Shown: piece by piece, positions 8,746 to 53,711 of the stretch
Numbering within the stretch: the first letter of the stretch is position 1
How the letters are laid out: the number at the start of each line of letters is the position of its first letter
Origin: Giardia intestinalis
Lineage: Eukaryota
Length of the DNA: 64,000 nt
Reading direction: 5' to 3' (one strand)
Assembly: GCA_000002435.2 (NCBI GenBank)
Contig: CM018790.1
Program-made: the position numbers and the translations under genes
Notes under the pieces: generated by a model
What the model saw: only the letters and a program-made list of their open reading frames with translations
What the model was told of the DNA's origin: nothing
Database searches by the model: none

Positions 8746-11094
8746 ATGCAGCCGGGTCAGGGGACTACCCCGCATAATAGACGGCCAACCAAACCCGAGA
8801 TGAAGCACGAAGGCTCCAAGAAGGTGCCATGGAAGAAACCGGCGGGCGGAGCTCCAAGGAAGCCAGGCAAACCAGGAAGTGGTCCTGGCAAGCCTTCAGC
8901 CAATTGGGCCGCCAAAAAAGGCTCTCATCCATATAAGCGTCGTGAAATACCTACTAAGAATAACATGACACATGATGAGGTCATAGCGATATGGGAGAAG
9001 ATGCGTGTCAAGAAGCTGCCGCCTCCCGAGAGACTGCGCTACATCAATTCTATTATAGGCTACTTTGTTGATAACGTCGTCACTTTCTCACGCAAGCCTG
9101 TTGAAGTGCGTATCCTCAGGTTTATAGTGAAGCACGGAACAGATGATTACCGAAGCATGATTCTCAAAGAGGTCAGCGGGCACGTACAGGAGCTTATTGT
9201 CGACAAGTACGCCACGAAGCTGATAGAGCGCCTCGGGGGAAGCTATAGATGGGACAAGGAGACGGCCCTTGCCATTGTTGAGAGCATCCTCCCAAACCTC
9301 CAAAAGCTTTGTCTCAACACAACAGGTGCAACTACCATAAGCTATATTTATCAAACCGTGCCTCTGAAGGTGCAGAACAAGATGCTTATAGCGCTGGTTG
9401 GACCTGCTGTGGACATAACGGATACAGCGCTTATTGCCCGCGAAGCGTTTATCCTCAAAGAGGCTCTCTACGTCCCCGGTCGCTTCAATGCAGTATTTTC
9501 TGAGTGCATGAAAATCCTTCACAAAGGGTTGGAGAAGAACCTTCTTGGCTGCACACTATTAACTAAGCTGGCTGCTGACACGCTCCGAATGATCTTTGGG
9601 TGCTTTGGGAGTACAACTGGTCCACATCTCGGACACGGTTCTGCAACTGATGAAGACTCTGGTGCCAAGGATGGAGCACTAGAGCCCGCACCTAAAAAGA
9701 CCAGTGTTTTGAGAAATGTCAACGAGAAGACCATTCAATTTGTTTCTGAATTGACGGATGCGCTAATAGAGGAAAATGCGTTTTTGTCTCTGCTCGATAC
9801 AGCTGACTCTGTTTTCGTGTCTTCCTTTGTTCTCCAATTCTGCACTCCTAAACGCAGGAAAGATGTAATAAAGGCTGTGCGCCCAAACGTTGTTCAGTTT
9901 GCGGGCGATCCTATGGCCTTCATTCTTCTTTGCAAATTGTTTGCGGTCACTGACGACACTGTTACCACCACATCCTCGCTCATCTCAGGAGAGGGCGGAA
10001 TTGGTGCCTCACTCAATACAATTCTTCGCACTAGAGCGGGGATCAGAACCGTACATTTTCTCCTATTTGGTTTGAAAGAGCTTGATGCTTCGGGTAGAGG
10101 CACTACTCCTATCTTCGCCAAGTGGATATCGGAGATTCTCCGTCAGACTGATCTGAAAGTTATTTTCCCCGAAGCCAGCGTAGATCAGTTTCCGGGCCTC
10201 TGTAAAAAAGATGGAGCAACAAAGCAGGCAGAATTACGCGCTGGGATAATGCCGTATTTACTGAATGCATTGACAAACGAGGATTTATTGGTGTCTCTCC
10301 TTGGGAGCTGTGAGGTAGGGAGCCAGATGCTTTGTGAGCTCATTGCCTATCTTTCTACCAGCACCGATGAGGTCACTAAAACAGAGAAGTCGCTGAAGAC
10401 TAAGGCAAGCAAGAAGAGCAACGCAGACTCACAACCCGTTCTAGACGATAAGCTGCAACCCATTCTTAGGACGATTGCGAACGCGGCCTGCAAACTGGTC
10501 GACCCTACCGTGCGGGGCATCCGACAGACAGACAAGGACCTACTACACCAGGGAAGCGCAAGCAATATCATGAAAATGATAGCCAAGCAGCAGAAGAAGG
10601 CTATTGAGCTAGCCAAAAAGGAGCAAGAACGGGCGGCTGGAGAGGAGGCGGCTCATACGACAGATGAAGACGATGACAGTGGCTCTGAGGCATCCAGTAA
10701 TAATGAGGAGCATCCAAAGGAGGGTGATGAGCCGCCAAAGAAGAACCGAGCCGAGAGAGACAAGCCCAAGAGAAATGCTCCGTACGTGCCATGCGCCCCA
10801 GAGGATAGACAGCCGCTGTTCAGGCATGACGTGGGTTACTTCAGCGTTCGGCGTATTTTGACGAATCATCCACCGTTTGGAGAACTTCTTTTGTCAGCAT
10901 TTGAGGCCCAAAGTGTACCGGGTCGCTTTTTCGCTGATAAGCGAGGGGCATTCATGCTCGAGCATATAGCCAAGATAAGCGACAAGAACAATACCCTGGT
11001 TAGAGAATTTGTCTCCCGGCACAATTTAACTAAGACCGTCGCCGCGAAGGGCTGCAAAGGGAGCGAGGCGCTTTGCACAGTTTTGGGCCTGTGA
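8746..11094 (+). CDS. hypothetical protein, 782 aa, with a basic Pro/Lys-rich N-terminus, an acidic Ser/Asp/Glu C-terminal tract, and weak resemblance to Puf-A/PUM3-type helical-repeat nucleolar proteins
   Basis: A/T-rich start context (aattaattgaatttctATG). Segments such as RILRFIVKHGTDDYRSMILKEVSGHVQELIVDKYATKLIERL resemble Pumilio-like helical repeats. The assignment is weak. Confidence 0.6.
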   Translation: MQPGQGTTPHNRRPTKPEMKHEGSKKVPWKKPAGGAPRKPGKPGSGPGKPSANWAAKKGSHPYKRREIPTKNNMTHDEVIAIWEKMRVKKLPPPERLRYINSIIGYFVDNVVTFSRKPVEVRILRFIVKHGTDDYRSMILKEVSGHVQELIVDKYATKLIERLGGSYRWDKETALAIVESILPNLQKLCLNTTGATTISYIYQTVPLKVQNKMLIALVGPAVDITDTALIAREAFILKEALYVPGRFNAVFSECMKILHKGLEKNLLGCTLLTKLAADTLRMIFGCFGSTTGPHLGHGSATDEDSGAKDGALEPAPKKTSVLRNVNEKTIQFVSELTDALIEENAFLSLLDTADSVFVSSFVLQFCTPKRRKDVIKAVRPNVVQFAGDPMAFILLCKLFAVTDDTVTTTSSLISGEGGIGASLNTILRTRAGIRTVHFLLFGLKELDASGRGTTPIFAKWISEILRQTDLKVIFPEASVDQFPGLCKKDGATKQAELRAGIMPYLLNALTNEDLLVSLLGSCEVGSQMLCELIAYLSTSTDEVTKTEKSLKTKASKKSNADSQPVLDDKLQPILRTIANAACKLVDPTVRGIRQTDKDLLHQGSASNIMKMIAKQQKKAIELAKKEQERAAGEEAAHTTDEDDDSGSEASSNNEEHPKEGDEPPKKNRAERDKPKRNAPYVPCAPEDRQPLFRHDVGYFSVRRILTNHPPFGELLLSAFEAQSVPGRFFADKRGAFMLEHIAKISDKNNTLVREFVSRHNLTKTVAAKGCKGSEALCTVLGL

Positions 11095-11095
11095 A

Positions 11096-11102
11096 TTTAC
11101 TG
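11096..11102 (-). promoter_or_regulatory. AGTAAAT polyadenylation-signal motif for the cyclin gene, located between the two convergent stop codons
   Basis: The reverse complement of atttact at 11096-11102 is AGTAAAT, lying 4 nt after the cyclin stop (11106-11108). Confidence 0.5.
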
Positions 11103-11105
11103 AGA

Positions 11106-12131
11106 TTACTTTGCTTCCTTTGTATTAAGAGTTAGCGCCTGCGTTACCACAGTCTCAATCATCAAGGACACCCCGTAGAAGCGATCCTCTTGCGAGTATT
11201 TGCGCCTTATGTATCTGGCCTTCGGGTTACAAGCGTATTTCTTCATGATCGTAGAAATCTCCGCCATAACCTTTTTTGTATCGCTCTCAGTGTATCCAGA
11301 ATACTTTTCGAGGGTTTCGTCCCAAGTCGGCTTCCGAGTCAATCTACGGGACATCGCAATGCAGCCTGCCGCAATCTCGCTAGGCTTAAATTTGAAGATA
11401 CTTGTCGTCAGACACGAGAGTTCAGAGATATAAAATGCAATGTAACGGTCTCGATTCTTCATTTCCGAAATTCTGGCATACCTTCGTAGGAATGTGAGAA
11501 TTGTGGGCATAGCCAGCTGGAAATCCAGCGTATGCAGGATAGATTCTTCCGTATCTATTATAGCTTCGCGACTGCACCTGTAGCACGGTCCCGAACGGTT
11601 ACCCTCGCACTTACAATTGACGAGGAATTCCGGGTCGACCTGGGTCAGCGCCTCCACAAAATGCCTAAGTGAAGGAATATAGCTTTGCTCGTACTTTGCT
11701 GCAATGAAAAGACAGCAAATGCCAACAAGTCTGTTAGAGGCCTTGGGTACTACCACGCGAGAAAGATAACTGTCAAAAATCGCTATGCAATGAAAGAAGC
11801 TCTCGTTGGCCAAATTGAAGCGTGTGTGACACCTAGAGATCCAGTCAACAAGTAGCGTGCGGTCCTCTGCATCAAAGTCTATCTGGTTCGACAAAAAGTC
11901 CGAACCAAGCATGTACTTACCCTCAGACTGAAGTAGGTACTCATATATCTCTCTTACGTATTCTGCGCACGCCTGGATATCATCCTTATCAATCAAATCG
12001 ATGTCGAGAATGTCCGTTTCTTTATCGGGGTTGGCGTGCCTGAAGTTAATCAAGGCCTGTGGCATCTCCTCGACATTGTCTACCGGCTGCTCGAATGTGT
12101 GAACGCTCTGGGATTCGTCGTCTAATGGCAT
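11106..12131 (-). CDS. A/B-type (mitotic) cyclin, 341 aa
   Basis: Cyclin box with RTLLVDWISRCHTRFNLANESFFHCIAIFDSYLS...NRLVGICCLFIAAKYEQSYIPSLRHF, matching the consensus MRxILVDWLVEV...ETLxLAVxxxDRFL...LQLVGxxxLxIAxKYEE. A second fold includes EESILHTLDFQL. The N-terminus has no obvious RxxL destruction box. Confidence 0.85.
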   Translation of the reverse strand: MPLDDESQSVHTFEQPVDNVEEMPQALINFRHANPDKETDILDIDLIDKDDIQACAEYVREIYEYLLQSEGKYMLGSDFLSNQIDFDAEDRTLLVDWISRCHTRFNLANESFFHCIAIFDSYLSRVVVPKASNRLVGICCLFIAAKYEQSYIPSLRHFVEALTQVDPEFLVNCKCEGNRSGPCYRCSREAIIDTEESILHTLDFQLAMPTILTFLRRYARISEMKNRDRYIAFYISELSCLTTSIFKFKPSEIAAGCIAMSRRLTRKPTWDETLEKYSGYTESDTKKVMAEISTIMKKYACNPKARYIRRKYSQEDRFYGVSLMIETVVTQALTLNTKEAK

Positions 12132-47825: not shown

Positions 47826-49439
47826 ATGTTGCCAGAACAGTATAGTAGCAGTGACGCAATCTCTAATGCTATAGACCAACACCTCTCTTCATTCAAGTAT
47901 CTGTCTCTCTATACTCTCAAGGGAACGGACAAGTTCATGGCCGAGGAGATTGATGCCGAGATACAGGGTGAAGGTGAGCGTGCCACGCTGGATATGCTGT
48001 ACGCAGAGTACGCCTCTGCACAGCTTCTGGCACACTCCAACATTATCAGGTATCATGGTCTCTTTGTACACGCATATTACGTCTATAATGTCACTCAGTT
48101 CTGTGCCACCCCGCTGAGTGCCGTGAAATTTTACAATAAAGATTGCGGCTTGTCCGTCAGCGATGTACTTAAGTTCACAGCCCAGACGGCACTTGCCCTA
48201 GCCTACCTCCACAGTCCATATAAGGTCGGTCCGCAACACATAAGCACGTTTTGTCTTCCACGGGTGCATGGATGGATGTCCTTAGACTCCGTAGTTATTG
48301 ACGCCGCCTCCTCCAGATATGTGGTCATGGACCTGGTACCTACTTTGAGGAGACTTCGGGTAAAGTCGAAGAGAACCCCCATGTCGAGACGGTATTTTTC
48401 GCCCGAAAAGCTCTTGCGTGGGGACGACTCTCCTGGATTCCCTCAGGATGATGCCTGGAGTCTTGGCATCATTCTGTATGAGTGTATCACAAATCAGAAA
48501 TTTAACTGCCCCGATAAAGAACACTATGCTACAGAAGAGCAGTGGACTGAATTCATGGGGAAACATATTGACTTAATTCAAGACGTTTGGCTCCGAAATC
48601 TTGTTATGCAGCTTCTTGCCTTCAATCCAGCTGAGCGTTTGACAGTGGAGGAGCTTCTGATGGACCCACGGATTGCTCAGGCAGCAGCAGACAACGAGGC
48701 GAGGCTTGTGTCTCACATGGAGCTTTCTTTCCTAGGAGACAAGAGAATGCAGTGCCTATACCCAGAGATCGTTCAAGCAAACAAGGATCTGCACTCTAAC
48801 CTGGATCAGTTACTCTCGGAAATAAGTGGTGAAGAAAGGAGAAGCTTTGAGTTGAAGGAGCAATGCGAAGATCTAACGACTCAGCAAGAAAGCCTCCTCT
48901 CTGAGATAGCTATGCAACAAGCAGCCGTCAGCTCTATGAAAGATCTTGCAAATGATATCAATCCAAACTATGACCAGCTTAAGGCCGAACTTGAGGAACT
49001 CGCTAGGTATCTAGACATCGATATTAATCAGGAAAACACACTTTCCATGCTAAATGGTGCAGATCAGGCAATCCAAGACATGATGAATGCGATACAACAA
49101 CTACAAGAGCTAGTCTCGATATATAATGACCACAAGGAGCGCATTAGAGATCCAAATCAATTGAATAGAGAAGCTGATGCAATGTTAGTAGATCTAAAGA
49201 GCACTATCTATTCTACTGCGCAGTTCATTGCTCGCTTAAGTAAGGATGCTTGCGTTGATCTTCTGGACAGTGACATTCCCACGTGCTCTGTATGCCTAGG
49301 AAGTTTATCTAATATAGTATTTTATCGGTGCAACCATATTGCGTGCTGTAATGTCTGTTTGGAGCACATATTAAATAGTACGCGCACGTGTCCCATCTGC
49401 AGGACAGAGATAACTCAGTACAAGGAGGTAACTTGGTAA
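47826..49439 (+). CDS. degenerate protein-kinase-like domain (pseudokinase) + coiled coil + C-terminal C3HC4 RING finger, 537 aa; putative E3 ligase
   Basis: Kinase subdomain remnants: HSNIIRYHG, ALALAYLHS, YFSPEKL (the APE region), DAWSLGIILYECIT and NPAERLTVEELLMDP. There is no GxGxxG, VAIK, HRD or DFG. RING: CSVCLGSLSNIVFYRCNHIACCNVCLEHILNSTRTCPICRTEI, with C-x2-C...C-x-H-x2-C-x2-C...C-x2-C spacing. Confidence 0.8.
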   Translation: MLPEQYSSSDAISNAIDQHLSSFKYLSLYTLKGTDKFMAEEIDAEIQGEGERATLDMLYAEYASAQLLAHSNIIRYHGLFVHAYYVYNVTQFCATPLSAVKFYNKDCGLSVSDVLKFTAQTALALAYLHSPYKVGPQHISTFCLPRVHGWMSLDSVVIDAASSRYVVMDLVPTLRRLRVKSKRTPMSRRYFSPEKLLRGDDSPGFPQDDAWSLGIILYECITNQKFNCPDKEHYATEEQWTEFMGKHIDLIQDVWLRNLVMQLLAFNPAERLTVEELLMDPRIAQAAADNEARLVSHMELSFLGDKRMQCLYPEIVQANKDLHSNLDQLLSEISGEERRSFELKEQCEDLTTQQESLLSEIAMQQAAVSSMKDLANDINPNYDQLKAELEELARYLDIDINQENTLSMLNGADQAIQDMMNAIQQLQELVSIYNDHKERIRDPNQLNREADAMLVDLKSTIYSTAQFIARLSKDACVDLLDSDIPTCSVCLGSLSNIVFYRCNHIACCNVCLEHILNSTRTCPICRTEITQYKEVTW

Positions 49440-49524: not shown

Positions 49525-50910
49525 ATGTCTCAGCAGTTCATTCTCGTGGTGGGGGACATCAACATCCCGACAAAAGCCTTCCAAATCCCCATTCAGTTCC
49601 GGGAAATCTTCCACCCCAGGCGCATATCCCATGTGATTCTGACCGGGAACGTTACATCAGCAGGCACTGTCTCGTTTCTCAAGACTATCAAGTCTGATCT
49701 ACACGCAGTTCGAGGACCTTACGATGAGACAAGCTACCCCGACGTGGACACGCGCAACTACTGCGGCTACAACATCTCTGTAATGAATGGAAGCCAATGC
49801 ATGCCGATGGGGGACTCAGCACAGCTTTCTAAGTTTGCAAAGGTATACGACAGCGAGATCATTTGTTCCGGATGTGGCTGGCGCCCGTTCGTTGGAATGG
49901 TTGATAACGTTCTGGTGGTTAAGCCCGGGAGCCTGACTGGCAGTATTAAGGAACATGAGCCCGGTTACGCCGATGACTCATCTTACTGCTTTAGCCAGAG
50001 CTCACAACCAGGAGAGGATGCAAGCTCTCTTACGGACTCTGATGGAATGAAGACATATGTGCCTAACCCATCGAAGGTTTATCCATATGTTCGCTATACC
50101 AGCGAACCGTCGTTTGTCCTACTGGGAGTATCGAAGGGTTCACCACTTGTTAATGTCTTCACATACATCATCCGTGATACCCAGCTGGTTGTCTCATCAT
50201 CGAAGTTTATGGTTCCTAAACTTCATGAACTACCAGAGCCTCAAGTAGAGATGTTTATGCATCACAGATCCTCACAAGAGCAACAGTCACAAGAACCTGT
50301 CGCTTTTGGAGGCCTAGGTAATCCGCCGCAAACAGCACTGCCTCCGTCATCACAGCAGTTTAACCCCTATTCACCTTCTACAATTAATGCACAGATAGGA
50401 GCGCCGTCTCAGGCGTGGCAGGTACCACCGTCCTTCCAAGGTGGAGAGGGTCTGCCGGGCCAGCAGTTTTCTAGTCAGTCATCATGGGCCTCTCAGCAGG
50501 TATCTGCCCCTGCCCCTACCCTAGTGCAGCCTACCCCCATTGCTGCCCCAGTGCAGCCTACCCCCATTGCTGCCCCAGTGCAGCCTACCCCCATTGCTGC
50601 CCCAGTGCAGCCTACCCCCATTGCTGCCCCAGTGCAGCCTGTTGAAGACTCTGCTTCTTCTGTTACTACGTCAGCTGTGTCAGCAGCTCCACCGGCGCCC
50701 ACTAAAGCGAATCCTTATTTGCAAGCTAAGGCGTCTCCTGGCACAAATCCTTACCTTGCTAGCTCTGCTACTAAGCCTGCTAACCCCTATCTTAAGGCAA
50801 CGAATCCTGGCACCTCTCCGACCAGTCCCCCAACAACAAATCCATACCTCAAAATGGCGGGAGGAACGAGTGAAACGTCCCCATATCTTAAGAAGTTTGA
50901 AGATTCTTAG
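49525..50910 (+). CDS. Vps29-like (retromer, calcineurin-like phosphoesterase fold) N-terminal domain with a long Pro/Gln/Ser-rich C-terminal extension containing tandem repeats, 461 aa
   Basis: MSQQFILVVGDINIPTKAFQIPIQFREIFHPRRISHVILTGNV...FLKTIKSDLHAVRGPYDE aligns with human VPS29 [40 protein letters not shown]...YLKTLAGDVHIVRGDFDE. The downstream region NGSQCMPMGD...SEIICSGCG aligns with IHGHQVIPWGD...DILISGHTH but has lost the metal-ligand His residues. The C-terminal half contains (VQPTPIAAP)x4 and NPYL repeats. Confidence 0.65.
   Translation: MSQQFILVVGDINIPTKAFQIPIQFREIFHPRRISHVILTGNVTSAGTVSFLKTIKSDLHAVRGPYDETSYPDVDTRNYCGYNISVMNGSQCMPMGDSAQLSKFAKVYDSEIICSGCGWRPFVGMVDNVLVVKPGSLTGSIKEHEPGYADDSSYCFSQSSQPGEDASSLTDSDGMKTYVPNPSKVYPYVRYTSEPSFVLLGVSKGSPLVNVFTYIIRDTQLVVSSSKFMVPKLHELPEPQVEMFMHHRSSQEQQSQEPVAFGGLGNPPQTALPPSSQQFNPYSPSTINAQIGAPSQAWQVPPSFQGGEGLPGQQFSSQSSWASQQVSAPAPTLVQPTPIAAPVQPTPIAAPVQPTPIAAPVQPTPIAAPVQPVEDSASSVTTSAVSAAPPAPTKANPYLQAKASPGTNPYLASSATKPANPYLKATNPGTSPTSPPTTNPYLKMAGGTSETSPYLKKFEDS
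50524..50640 (+). repeat. perfect 27-bp tandem repeat (gtgcagcctacccccattgctgcccca), 4 copies plus a 9-bp partial, in-frame within the Vps29-like CDS
   Basis: Read directly from the sequence: units at 50524-50550, 50551-50577, 50578-50604 and 50605-50631, with a partial unit at 50632-50640. Encodes VQPTPIAAP x4. Confidence 0.9.
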
Positions 50911-50960
50911 TAATGTTGGCTCATTCAGTGCGACTGTAAATAATGCTGCTTCTAGACTGT

Positions 50961-53148
50961 TTACTGCACACTAGACCTGTCATTTAGGGCTTTCAGCAAC
51001 GGATCTTGCAAAGATGTTGCAGATAGAAGCAGTGTTTCCCGGTCGTGAGAAAGCTTTGTAAGACAGAGGCGCTTTATAAAGCTGTCACAGAAATCGTTTC
51101 CTAGTGCAGAAAATTCAGAAACTAGCTGCTCCACGCTTTCTACCTGGTGAGAGGCTGCGACAGTCCTCAACGTCGCAATTAAAATATCCACACTGTTCTT
51201 TTGGCTTCTGGACAGAGTGGCGCTAATTGTGCTATATGTTTTCGAGGCTTCTAGCTTGCTGCTGGTAATAAAGGAAGGTGGAGGAGGCGTCTTGTAACCT
51301 GGCGGATCGCTTGAGTTGAAGCTCAATTTTCGAAGTTCGCTACGTGAGGAGGGTCCGGGACTGGTTAAGCTGTACTTATCTGTGCGATGCCTGGCAGAGA
51401 GGCTTACACTATCTGAAAAAGCGGGAGCGGGAGGAATGGCGGGGATCTGTGGGACCTGAGGAACCTTAAGTGCATCGGTGATTTGCGCACCAGGTATGTG
51501 AATTTGGGTTTTCTGACTGGGATCCTGTGAGAGGACTGAGTGTAGTTTAACGGCGGTAGTCGGTCTATTAACGGTATCCTTCAATGGGGTAGCATTAGAT
51601 AGATCTTTGTGAACTAGCTCTGACGGATGTATAGTCGGCGATGGCTCATTTGACTCATCAGTAGAAACTCGGGCACATCCACCCCCTTGCAAAGAGTCAG
51701 TGAAGCCATCAGCAACGCTTTGCAGGGGTAGGATAACATCTTGGCCGTTTATATCTTCTCCTGTAGCGCTTAGCTGGCCGACATTCTGCTCTAGGTGAGG
51801 TGGTGGTGGTGATGTTAATTTGGAATGTTGGGGAGAGTTCTCGGATGTGTCACTAGAAAAGCTCCAATCTTCTTGTTTCTTGGTCGGCTGAATCTTCTCG
51901 TGGTCTAATTGATTTAAATAGGGATCTTCTGGAGAGAATGTGACATTTATCTCGGAGCCCGCATTGGCTCTTGCCCGGGAAGCAGCAGCTTGTTTAACTG
52001 GAACAAATTCTTCCTCGGCAGAACCCTGTTCTTCGGGAAGCCAAATATAGCCCAGATCATCTTGTTTTGTTTGTATGGCAAAGGGGTCGTGTAAGCGATC
52101 CTGCTCTCGTCTATTGAAGTCACGAAAGTATTTCTCCATAATGGGGGCTAGAACATCGCGTGCAGAGACCTTCTGGATGGTTTTGAACCACTTGTGGGTC
52201 AAGAGCTTACTTGCAGGCCATCGATTAGTCTTGTCTCTGTCCAAACAGCAGGCAGCAAAGTCTCTGCACGTCTTGGAGATCTCAACCTTGTCATCAAACA
52301 GTGATGTGCTGGACGAATTTCTCGCTATTTCAATCATGGCCTTCGTGGGAGAGAGTTTGTGGTGAGGTGGGTGGCCAAAAATAAGCTCATAGAGGCAGAT
52401 TCCAACTGCCCAGATATCAGAAAAAGAATCGCACTCATTTTTGGTAATAGCCTCTGGGGAAAGCCAATAAGGTGTGCCAACAAACGAGCATCTTTTGGAC
52501 ATGGTCGAAGAAATTGTCGTCGAGACACCAAAATCGCAGAGCTTGATTCCCAATGATAAGGCAGCTGCAGAGTCAGAATTTGGCCGAGGAGAAAAAGAGC
52601 GAGCAATAGTCGAGATGTAACTTCCATGAGAGCTCCTCGGCCTGGAGGTTTCAGAAAAGAGACCTGGAGAAACAGGTTTGCCCAGTATTAAGTCAATTAG
52701 CCGCTTTGCCAAGCCATCAGGCTGCTGTGCCACGGTTGAAGACGTGCTGTCATCGGTCACAAGGATATTGGCACACTTTAAATCTCTGTGTATGACCTTG
52801 GATTCATGAAGATACGCAACCCCCTTAACCAAGTGGTACATAATGAAGCACGCAGTAGCTTCGTTGAGGGGTCCGACTATGCTCAGTATATCTGCCACAG
52901 AGCAGAGGCCAGCCTCCATGGCTATGTTCAAGGTGCTCTCTGTGCACCACGACCTATAGTAACGGATAGTGTAGTTAGACATCAACCTAGTCATGAGGGT
53001 AACCTCTTTCTGGACCACATCCAGCTCTGAAAGTGACTGCTCTAAATCTACTGTCTTGATAGCCACGTAGGTCATTGTCTTTTCATCTAGCGCCAAGTAC
53101 ACTGAACCGAAGCCACCGGAACCCAGTATCTTTAGTAGCTTGTATCCC
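50961..53148 (-). CDS. active Ser/Thr protein kinase (STE20/GCK-like), about 729 aa, with a ~70-aa insertion between the catalytic loop and DFG
   Basis: LGSGGFGSVYLA, YVAIKTV, VIHRDLKCANILV, KLCDFGVS and GTPYWLSPE are all present. Start chosen at MGYKLLKILGSG (ATG 53146-53148, context gcaaaatttgttaacaacccATG). The ORF-track upstream extension to 53384 is hydrophobic and non-kinase, and is probably not translated. Confidence 0.8.
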
Positions 53149-53207
53149 ATCGGGTTGTTAACAAATTTTGCCAGCAGAGTGAAATTGGATAACGAAAAAA
53201 CTCGCAA

Positions 53208-53711
53208 TTGATGACAAGCGAACCTACCCAGGAAGTAACCAAATGTGGTCCAAATGAAAAGGACTACTTCCGCATCAGAGCAAAGGTATACCGTTTTGCA
53301 GATGACGAATGGAAGGAGCGTGGTCAAGGTGAGGTCTTGATCGCGGAGGATCCCAAAGAGAAGAAATACAGGCTTCTTCTCCATCGAGATCAGACCCTAA
53401 AGTGCGCAGTGAACCTCCCCTTGATTGAGGGCGTGGCAGTGAAGCCGCTCGGAAACTCTGACAAAGCTGTTACTGTTGCCGGTCTCGACTTTTCAGACAA
53501 CGAGAAGAAACAAACCGTTTTTGCAGTCAAGTTTACCGAGGCATGGATGTGCAAGAACTTTCAAACTGCTGTAGAGCATGCCCTGGCGGGGAAAGAGTTG
53601 ACCGAGGCCGATCTGATCAAAAAGCCTGACTCCGAAGAACCCAAGAATGATAAACCTGCTGAGGCGAAAGCTTCTGAAAAAGATGTTGAAGAAGTGGGTG
53701 ACAAAAAGTGA
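53208..53711 (+). CDS. RanBP1-like Ran-binding-domain protein, 167 aa
   Basis: RanBD signature: RIRAKVYRFADDEWKERGQGEVLIAEDPKEKKYRLLLHRDQTLKCAVNLPL...LKPLGNSDKAVTVAGLDFSD...TVFAVKFTEAWMCKNF. Compare RanBP1 RAKLFRF...EWKERGTGDVKLLKH...RLLMRRDKTLKICANH...L.PNAGSDRAWVW..DF.DE...E.LAIRF. Stop TGA is embedded in AGTGAAC at 53707-53713. Confidence 0.85.
   Translation: MMTSEPTQEVTKCGPNEKDYFRIRAKVYRFADDEWKERGQGEVLIAEDPKEKKYRLLLHRDQTLKCAVNLPLIEGVAVKPLGNSDKAVTVAGLDFSDNEKKQTVFAVKFTEAWMCKNFQTAVEHALAGKELTEADLIKKPDSEEPKNDKPAEAKASEKDVEEVGDKK

Follow-up and report, generated by a model that had tools for sequence, protein, structure and literature searches.

The window analysed here is a 64,000-nucleotide stretch of the Giardia intestinalis genome (assembly GCA_000002435.2, contig CM018790.1). 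It includes a complete gene for Vps29, a subunit of the retromer core. The translated open reading frame (ORF) agrees at 461/461 residues with XP_001708741.2, "Vacuolar protein sorting 29" of G. intestinalis WB (GL50803_103855), and an exact-sequence look-up returned the same match under KAE8302349.1. The A-rich AAAAAATAAAA lies directly 5' of the ATG. The gene is already known, as an annotated and experimentally tagged retromer subunit. Its product, GiVps29, combines a complete Vps29 core with two additions, a loop insert and a long C-terminal extension, and the locus is organised as follows:

49525..50910, plus strand: complete Vps29 gene, 461 codons plus stop (ORF list, exact-sequence look-up)
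49525..49956, plus strand: Vps29 core part 1, residues 1-144 (phmmer against the PDB, Pfam, model pLDDT 92-97)
49957..50100, plus strand: loop insert, residues 145-192, 48 aa (alignment to vertebrate VPS29)
50101..50220, plus strand: Vps29 core part 2, residues 193-232 (model strands, Foldseek, pocket mapping)
50221..50907, plus strand: C-terminal extension, residues 233-461, 229 aa (62% P/A/S/Q/T, without predicted stable structure)
50296..50322, plus strand: conserved island PVAFGGLGN, residues 258-266 (invariant in six G. intestinalis sequences)
50519..50640, plus strand: 27-bp tandem repeat (Tandem Repeats Finder, 4.5 copies, 98% matches)
50710..50898, plus strand: five-motif array of four NPYL copies and SPYLKKF (invariance, dN = 0)

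Several lines of evidence define the identity of the gene. The order Vps29, convergent kinase, RanBP1 is common to assemblages B and E and to G. muris, and a gene from a Giardia-like organism (P0014, SRR31929897) is also syntenic with Giardia Vps29. The source of P0014 has 64% GC and branches outside G. intestinalis and G. muris. An exhaustive HMMER search recovered one Vps29 cluster for G. intestinalis, one for G. muris and a fragment of 85 aa that matches the query at 98% identity; P0014 aside, it returned no further close relatives of GiVps29. With the N-terminal domain as query, a word-indexed search for homologues reached G. muris only; the exhaustive HMMER search reached other Vps29 proteins. 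The single-copy call is drawn from the HMMER search, the annotation match and synteny. Metamonads other than Trichomonas are reported to be without an expanded retromer complement (PMC11267458). The original prediction had described an extra, Vps29-like protein; the exact match and conserved synteny instead identify it as the annotated Vps29 of G. intestinalis WB, and a second paralogue is ruled out on the same two grounds. An annotated Vps29 that already accounts for the gene had been named as an outcome that would count against the prediction, and XP_001708741.2 is that protein. That the ORF product is the Vps29 orthologue of G. intestinalis is virtually certain. The best explanation of the whole, to which we assign a probability of about 0.8, is that the gene encodes the sole Vps29 subunit of the Giardia retromer core Vps35-Vps26-Vps29.

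Homology to Vps29, claimed from the sequence in the original prediction, is borne out by the profile check proposed with it. The Pfam Metallophos_2 profile matches residues 6-149 at 36.2 bits, above its cutoff of 27 (E = 7.8e-9), and all 18/18 phmmer matches in the PDB are VPS29 (best E = 1.6e-22, residues 2-144). Core part 1 contains GDINIP, TGN, RGPYDE, NGSQ and SGCGW, together with the Vps35-contact loop C92-M93-P94. The homology had been placed in the first ~130 aa, an extent that proves too short: the fold runs on past the insert into core part 2, which supplies the last three beta-strands (modelled at 196-203, 208-217 and 220-229) and carries the pocket residues F197, L199, F212, Y214 and V223. 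An AF2 model of residues 1-240 reached pLDDT 88.2 and pTM 0.88. In a Foldseek search of the PDB with this fold, ranks 1-34 are all VPS29, with a target-normalised TM-score up to 0.94 (human VPS29), and the best non-Vps29 E-value is nine orders of magnitude weaker than the Vps29 matches. The Vps29 fold is thus complete through residue ~232 and is interrupted by the 48-aa insert. The insert separates the PGSLTG strand from the PSF strand and is in part modelled at low confidence (pLDDT 49-67 at residues 151-180); at this point of the fold, 23/102 Vps29 representatives have over 40 aa. dN/dS is 0.004-0.008 for the two parts of the core together and 0.03-0.045 for the insert.

The former metal site is largely dismantled. 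At the seven ligand positions, where the family pattern is DHNDHHH, the alignment gives DNNPNCW, with 2/7 kept and 5/7 lost (VPS29 numbering followed by GiVps29: D8, D11; H10, N13; N39, N42; D62, P65; H86, N88; H115, C117; H117, W119). NGSQ (N88-G-S90-Q) replaces the family HGHQ and SGCGW (residues 115-119) replaces SGHTH, in agreement with the GSQ and SGCG previously read at these places. Other details of that reading required correction. The first motif, given as GD.HIP, reads GDINIP, so the equivalent of His10 (Asn13) is lost as well; the true ligand of the GHQ motif is the first His of HGHQ (H86), here Asn88, and Asp62 has also gone, to Pro65. The site had been said to appear fully degenerate: degenerate it is, but Asp11 and Asn42 survive. 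The bridging position of the metal site (human N39, here N42) holds Asn in 95/102 representatives. G. muris (DNNPNCY) and the outgroup P0014 (DNNPSSP) lack the same five ligands, which makes the loss an old one that has been tolerated.

This degeneration is less surprising than had been implied, since VPS29 is already viewed as a metal-independent scaffold, and has been shown to be rigid and to lack phosphatase activity (PMC3101248), and ligands have been lost in other Vps29 lineages too. Of the seven ligands that characterise active calcineurin-like metallophosphoesterases, D11 and N42 alone remain. If the protein were nevertheless an active phosphoesterase, with an atypical site built on Cys and Asn, metal could in principle be coordinated by Cys117 and Asn88 alongside the two kept residues. 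Such an enzyme is barely conceivable, however: among the five replacements are Pro65 and Trp119, which are unable to coordinate metal, residue 119 varies across the three lineages (W, Y, P), and mammalian VPS29, with all its ligands in place, is itself inactive (PMC3101248). The GiVps29 core is very probably a non-catalytic scaffold. Ligand loss, a conservatively substituted Vps35 loop and a retained pocket fit the established view of Vps29 as such a scaffold, and the extreme purifying selection on Vps29 across the clade (dN/dS <0.01), despite replacement of 5/7 ligands, provides natural evidence for a scaffold-only role.

Residues 1-232 form the full Vps29 phosphoesterase-like sandwich and would act purely as a scaffold, with the former metal-site face predicted to dock on the C-terminal solenoid of Vps35. 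In the alignment, the human contact loop V90-I91-P92 corresponds to C92-M93-P94, and the alpha-3 helix contributes L101 and K106; all substitutions are conservative. The opposite face would leave free for a partner the hydrophobic pocket that binds Pro-Leu motif ligands in other eukaryotes. Judged from residue mapping, this pocket is retained (human followed by GiVps29: L2, F5; L26, F29; I31, I34; F150, F197; L152, L199; Y163, F212; Y165, Y214; V174, V223). Human and mouse VPS29 (PDB 1W24, 1Z2W, 2R17), which serve as scaffold in both retromer and retriever, resemble GiVps29 in fold (TM-score 0.91-0.94 over the 182-aa target), in the bridging Asn, in the Vps35 loop and in a pocket centred on Leu152. 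They differ from it in sequence (23-24% identity over the structural alignment), in the five replaced ligands, in the 48-aa insert and in the 229-aa NPYL extension.

Tagged Giardia VPS29 and VPS35 localise to cortical puncta, both were found in a screen for interactors of Giardia actin, and VPS29 is co-precipitated with that actin (PMC8552679). Giardia reportedly lacks FAM21 and the WASH complex as well as the BAR-domain sorting nexins of retromer's other subcomplex, and how its retromer is coupled to actin and membranes was left as an explicit question (PMC8552679).

The C-terminal extension, rich in Pro, Gln, Ala and Ser, is non-canonical. The original prediction of a low-complexity, repeat-rich tail with NPYL motifs that canonical Vps29 lacks is sound, except for its length, which is 229 aa (residues 233-461) and not ~300. 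Among the 102 Vps29 representatives, the median tail length is 6 aa, and unrelated tails of more than 50 aa occur in 18/102, from other lineages. The composition suggests that the tail is intrinsically disordered; a full-length AF2 model from a 7-sequence alignment reached only pLDDT 31 and is thus uninformative on tail disorder or docking in cis. Outside the motifs dN/dS is 0.16-0.36, and invariance across six G. intestinalis sequences is concentrated in aromatic residues (12/14 of the aromatic positions against 89/215 of the others). The single 27-bp array given by Tandem Repeats Finder encodes VQPTPIAAP four times, as previously proposed, plus a partial copy. In assemblage E it reads VQPAPIAAP x4. 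Copy number varies: one strain has models of both 452 aa and 461 aa, Logan short-read assemblies give 434-438 aa, and the repeat is probably a length-variable spacer. A literature search on Vps29 C-terminal extensions turned up no account of such tails; Miras et al. 2013 might comment on the tail or the metal residues.

Downstream of the repeat, NPYL occurs at residues 396, 408, 420 and 439, and SPYLKKF at 452-458, with spacings of 12, 12, 19 and 13 residues, which upholds the earlier observation of multiple NPYL motifs. An additional NPYS at residue 280 stands outside this five-motif array. Across the six G. intestinalis sequences, 20/20 motif residues are invariant compared with 21/46 spacer residues (Fisher p = 1.2e-5). 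The motif codons carry 6-11 synonymous differences in each comparison and no nonsynonymous ones (dN = 0, dS saturated), and adjacent spacers accumulated 13-15 nonsynonymous changes. Codon usage differs among the five copies, which are hence not recent DNA duplicates. A scan of the window's other ORFs of 150 aa or longer (21,437 aa) found no NPY, so its clustering here is not chance. Searched against a protein database, the 79-aa NPYL region returned zero matches and missed even Giardia proteins, which renders the search uninformative about other proteins with NPYL, and a literature search on NPYL retrieved unrelated uses only.

The orthologues show both recurrence and loss of the motif. G. muris Vps29 (P0006, 282 aa) and P0014 (557 aa) share with GiVps29 an insert at the same loop and Pro/Gln/Tyr-rich C-termini. 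The P0014 insert is longer (176 aa), and its 203-aa tail is unalignable and contains eight NPY motifs, NPYG or NPYE, 8 residues apart in the densest stretch, in contrast to NPYL every 12-19 residues in GiVps29. The G. muris tail is 52 aa long and lacks NPY, and the following gene begins 17 bp beyond its stop; at least one Giardia species can thus do without the array.

The tail is most likely a multivalent docking array, a putative role in which [N/S]PYL x5 and the other conserved aromatic islands would act as short linear motifs. These motifs would provide multivalent, low-affinity binding to a partner located at peripheral endocytic compartments or the cell cortex. A functional motif array in the tail is somewhat favoured on balance, and it may operate through motif-mediated partner binding. 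Any particular named partner, on the other hand, would be an improbable choice.

The main competitor holds that the tail is neutral low-complexity sequence that lengthened through slippage during replication in a compact, rapidly evolving parasite genome, with NPYL as remnants of an old degenerate repeat. In its favour, the repeat copies are near-identical (98%) and vary in number, tail evolution outside the motifs is 20-90 times faster than that of the core, G. muris gets by with its short NPY-free tail, and other lineages have acquired long tails of their own. Neutrality nonetheless appears unlikely, as it does not account for the motif codons, with no nonsynonymous changes beside heavily substituted spacers, for the invariance of every motif residue, for a conservation that favours aromatic residues, for the recurrence of NPY x8 in the unalignable P0014 tail, or for a tail dN/dS well under 1. 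The tail might alternatively fold back into the hydrophobic pocket of its own core as a pseudo-ligand in cis, auto-inhibiting Vps29 or replacing Pro-Leu ligands such as TBC1D5, VARP, FAM21 and Vps5. The pocket residues are kept, FAM21 and WASH are reportedly missing from Giardia, and characterised ligands of the pocket are all short motifs in disordered regions (PMC12000511; PMC11331091). Yet all known ligands have a contiguous Pro-Leu dipeptide; the sole PL of GiVps29 lies at residue 207, within the folded core, whereas in NPYL a Tyr parts Pro from Leu. The full-length model, at pLDDT 31, shows no confident docking, and we regard this reading as quite doubtful.

The idea put forward in the original prediction, that the NPYL and YL motifs are sorting signals, fares worse still. 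They would be NPxY- or YxxPhi-type signals read by adaptor complexes or FERM/PTB domains, with a retromer subunit sorted like cargo. The motifs do include Asn-Pro and Tyr-Leu, and Giardia has AP-1 and AP-2, with retromer subunits also present in AP-2 pull-downs (bioRxiv 10.1101/2025.10.20.683495). But N-P-x-Y occurs nowhere in the protein, and only one of the five motif tyrosines, Y441 (YLKM), fits YxxPhi. GiVps29 also has no transmembrane-grade segment (maximum Kyte-Doolittle 19-residue mean 1.40), so the geometry of a membrane-anchored cytosolic tail is absent. A sorting-signal role is accordingly very improbable.

For the docking array, two known systems offer points of comparison. Arrays of NPF that bind EH domains in endocytic proteins are Asn-Pro-aromatic repeats in disordered Pro/Gln-rich regions. 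The GiVps29 motifs resemble them in their Asn-Pro-aromatic repeats, but every copy has Tyr for Phe, and the NPF tripeptide is found nowhere in the protein. The FAM21 tail of the WASH complex, with 21 LFa repeats, is likewise a long disordered arm with multivalent short motifs within the retromer system (PMC11331091). The two are unrelated in sequence, an acidic Leu-Phe motif in FAM21 against Asn-Pro-Tyr-Leu in GiVps29, and the arm sits on a retromer partner in one case and on a retromer subunit itself in the other; the analogy is offered as functional speculation only. A broader and tentative proposal, which we consider unlikely as it stands, is that the NPY(L) array is a hitherto undescribed short-linear-motif system ancestral to the Giardia lineage, a multivalent arm on the retromer core that links it to divergent actin or peripheral-endocytic-compartment machinery. 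If this were true, the core itself would bear the kind of arm that is found in other eukaryotes on separate accessory proteins, for example in the FAM21 tail or at the Vps5 N-terminus. The conserved array offers a concrete, mutable handle on the linkage of retromer to actin and membranes in Giardia, which lacks FAM21 and WASH and, reportedly, the retromer sorting nexins as well.

Two minor observations concern the repeat region. A cis-intron candidate in GiVps29 from RNA-seq was dropped; it would stem from reads split across the 27-bp tandem repeat, and the sole validated novel intron was in a gene where it sits 5' of the annotated ORF (PMC3610916). Two further ORFs overlap the locus, at 50540-50974 (plus strand) and 50493-50702 (minus strand); in our reading they are by-products of the repeat, and conservation tracks the Vps29 frame.

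The ORF at 49525-50910 (+) encodes a protein of 461 aa that an exact-sequence look-up found identical, over its full length, to KAE8302349.1/XP_001708741.2, annotated as "Vacuolar protein sorting 29" in Giardia intestinalis WB ATCC 50803. This is accordingly an annotated gene that was already known, GL50803_103855 in the literature (PMC8552679), rather than a Vps29-like protein that might be a second paralog. The window belongs to G. intestinalis assemblage A. With about 48% GC and long ORFs placed back to back, it resembles a compact eukaryotic genome with few introns. An expanded retromer complement is reported to be absent from metamonads other than Trichomonas (PMC11267458).

Profile evidence bears out the Vps29 assignment. 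Pfam Metallophos_2 matches residues 6-149 at 36.2 bits (gathering score 27), and every one of the 18 PDB sequence matches is a VPS29 (lowest E 1.6e-22). Homology had been placed in the first ~130 aa only, but it extends to residue 232. Alignment of 102 Vps29 representatives matches residues 193-232 (EPSFVLLGVSKGSPLVNVFTYIIRDTQLVVSSSKFMVPK) to the C-terminal strands of vertebrate VPS29, with a 48-aa insert before them. The AF2 model of residues 1-240, built from 74 sequences (pLDDT 88.2, pTM 0.88), places strands at 196-203, 208-217, and 220-229, with low confidence confined to ~151-180. Foldseek matches of this core model are VPS29 chains throughout the first 34 ranks (target-normalised TM-score up to 0.94), and a phosphoesterase other than Vps29 is first reached at rank 35. 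Alignment, model, and Foldseek together support the following architecture, in which the tail is shorter than the ~300 aa proposed earlier:

Residues 1-144, core part 1
Residues 145-192, loop insert
Residues 193-232, core part 2
Residues 233-461, C-terminal tail of 229 aa

The insert-bearing loop is a hot spot for insertions in Vps29 generally, holding more than 40 aa in 23 of the 102 representatives.

Residue mapping to human VPS29 indicates that five of the seven metal ligands are lost in the Giardia protein:

D8 (human) to D11, kept
H10 (human) to N13
N39 (human) to N42, kept
D62 (human) to P65
H86 (human) to N88
H115 (human) to C117
H117 (human) to W119

The stretch originally read as GD.HIP is GDINIP, so the degeneration is worse than first reported. 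The family pattern DHNDHHH occurs exactly in 44/102 representatives, and the majority of the rest deviate from it at a single position; because the set was ordered by similarity to the Giardia sequence, it may over-represent degenerate forms. Equal degeneracy occurs in a handful of unrelated lineages (homologues P0054, P0065, P0067, and P0133). The same five positions are lost in G. muris (DNNPNCY) and in P0014 (DNNPSSP), a homologue from a sequencing-read contig, and core dN/dS is 0.004-0.008 between G. intestinalis lineages; hence, the ligands were lost long ago, and their loss is consistent with a fully functional protein. This agrees with the published view of VPS29 as a rigid scaffold and not an active metallophosphatase (PMC3101248). 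A degenerate metal site is the expectation for such a protein, and the Giardia protein is the retromer Vps29 scaffold.

In other eukaryotes, a hydrophobic surface of VPS29 that faces away from the Vps35 interface binds Pro-Leu motif ligands, namely TBC1D5, VARP, RidL, FAM21 repeat 21, and fungal Vps5 (PMC3101248, PMC12000511, PMC11331091). Judged from human-to-Giardia mapping, this surface is conservatively retained (L152 to L199, F150 to F197, Y163 to F212, Y165 to Y214, V174 to V223, I31 to I34, and L26 to F29). The Vps35-contact loop V90-I91-P92 corresponds to C92-M93-P94.

The tail is 62% Pro/Ala/Ser/Gln/Thr, has a net charge of -3, and comprises two very different parts, a 27-bp repeat array and the C-terminal 66 residues:

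50519-50640, 27-bp tandem repeat, 4.5 copies, 98% identical, encoding VQPTPIAAP
Residues 396, 408, 420, and 439, NPYL motifs, within the C-terminal 66 residues
Residues 452-458, SPYLKKF, within the C-terminal 66 residues

The (VQPTPIAAP)x4 repeat noted previously corresponds to this array. Copy number varies between assemblies of one strain and among related sequences; an older WB gene model has 452 aa, one 9-aa unit fewer than the 461-aa model, and the two differ by exactly that unit. The four units read VQPTPIAAP in WB and VQPAPIAAP throughout in assemblage E (P15, locus L003), so the array is homogenised within lineages and only weakly constrained in sequence. Its behaviour is that of a spacer, and homogenisation together with the one-unit model difference suggests concerted evolution or assembly collapse. 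In an RNA-seq study, RT-PCR was used to test putative cis-introns, with GL50803_103855 among the candidates; the single novel intron validated there sits 5' of the annotated ORF of its gene (PMC3610916). The GL50803_103855 candidate probably arose from reads split over the 27-bp repeat. Two out-of-frame ORFs overlap the tail, at 50540-50974 (+; 144 aa) and 50493-50702 (-; 69 aa). Their repeat-derived sequence, rich in Leu/Pro or Gly/Ala, makes them look like tandem-repeat by-products rather than genes.

The reported multiple NPYL motifs are present and conserved. Across six G. intestinalis sequences (77-94% identical overall to the query), motif residues are invariant at 20/20 positions versus 21/46 intervening ones (Fisher p = 1.2e-5). 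Pairwise comparisons each give dN = 0 and 6-11 synonymous differences for the motif codons; the adjoining spacers carry 13-15 nonsynonymous differences in each. The five copies use different codons (e.g., AAT CCT TAT TTG versus AAC CCC TAT CTT), indicating maintenance of the protein sequence rather than recent duplication. In the same six sequences, 12/14 tail aromatics are invariant versus 89/215 other positions, and further invariant islands read LHELPEP and PVAFGGLGN. No NPY was found outside Vps29 in 21,437 aa of window ORFs. This array of conserved NPY(L) motifs is genuine and apparently undescribed.

An exhaustive HMMER search recovered P0014, a 557-aa Vps29 on a 75.8-kb Logan contig of SRR31929897 (gene at 10001-11674 on this contig, L001). 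The surrounding locus has 64% GC, is densely packed with genes, and is syntenic with the Giardia one: RanBP1 lies downstream of Vps29, and the upstream genes are ribosomal L15e and Nop16, which G. muris has there too. P0014 is as far from G. intestinalis as from G. muris (Vps29 N-core identity 49-50%, RanBP1 58%), whereas these two share 70-72% in both; P0014 would thus branch outside both species, and its organism is possibly a Giardia-like diplomonad not yet sequenced. P0014 itself carries a 176-aa insert at the loop matching the G. intestinalis insert and a 203-aa tail rich in Pro/Gln/Gly/Tyr with eight NPY, mostly NPYGAP. The Pro/Gln/Tyr-rich G. muris tail has only 52 aa, in which no NPY was found, and 17 bp separate the stop codon from the following gene. 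Most simply, an ancestral tail carried NPY and was shortened in G. muris, although convergence between the tails of P0014 and G. intestinalis is possible.

As to function, the NPYL motifs had been taken for sorting signals. A sequence scan of Giardia Vps29 found no N-P-x-Y, a single Tyr fitting YxxPhi, and no membrane anchor, all of which argue otherwise. Possibly, the tail serves in cis as a pseudo-ligand for the protein's own hydrophobic pocket; however, it contains no Pro-Leu dipeptide, which every characterised pocket ligand uses (PMC12000511, PMC11331091). The evidence best supports a disordered arm that would present a multivalent array of short linear motifs to a putative partner. In Giardia, tagged VPS29 and VPS35 form cortical puncta and VPS29 co-precipitates with actin; the same authors report that Giardia lacks FAM21, WASH, and the sorting nexins of retromer's other subcomplex (PMC8552679). 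Purification with ARF-system baits at peripheral endocytic compartments also recovers the retromer subunits Vps35 and Vps26 (bioRxiv 10.1101/2025.10.20.683495). Overall, the initial observation is confirmed with corrections, for a gene that was already known.

Tails of 63-190 aa also occur in unrelated Vps29 of other eukaryotes (P0097, P0073, P0085, P0158, P0046, and P0067), with acidic-aromatic ends (...ERWDEV, ...ERWDDV, ...VVPNDV, ...DIFEDVE, ...EFADD, and ...EKFDD). The extreme C-terminal W-x-x-V in such tails resembles an Atg8-interacting motif core; the Giardia terminus reads ...KKFEDS.

Upstream, the 537-aa neighbour at 47826-49439 (+) carries a C3HC4 RING finger at its C-terminus (486-531), fused to a kinase-like domain for which only pieces match (residues 55-130 and 185-281), and the same gene also precedes Vps29 in the compared locus L002. 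The convergent downstream neighbour at 50961-53384 (-) encodes an 807-aa protein kinase, with a Pfam Pkinase match in two stretches and a long Ser/Pro-rich C-terminal region. Its stop lies just 50 bp from that of Vps29, so the 3' ends of both genes must nearly abut. The corresponding gene calls in assemblages B and E encode 747 and 728 aa, respectively, and the greater length here probably reflects start-codon choice.
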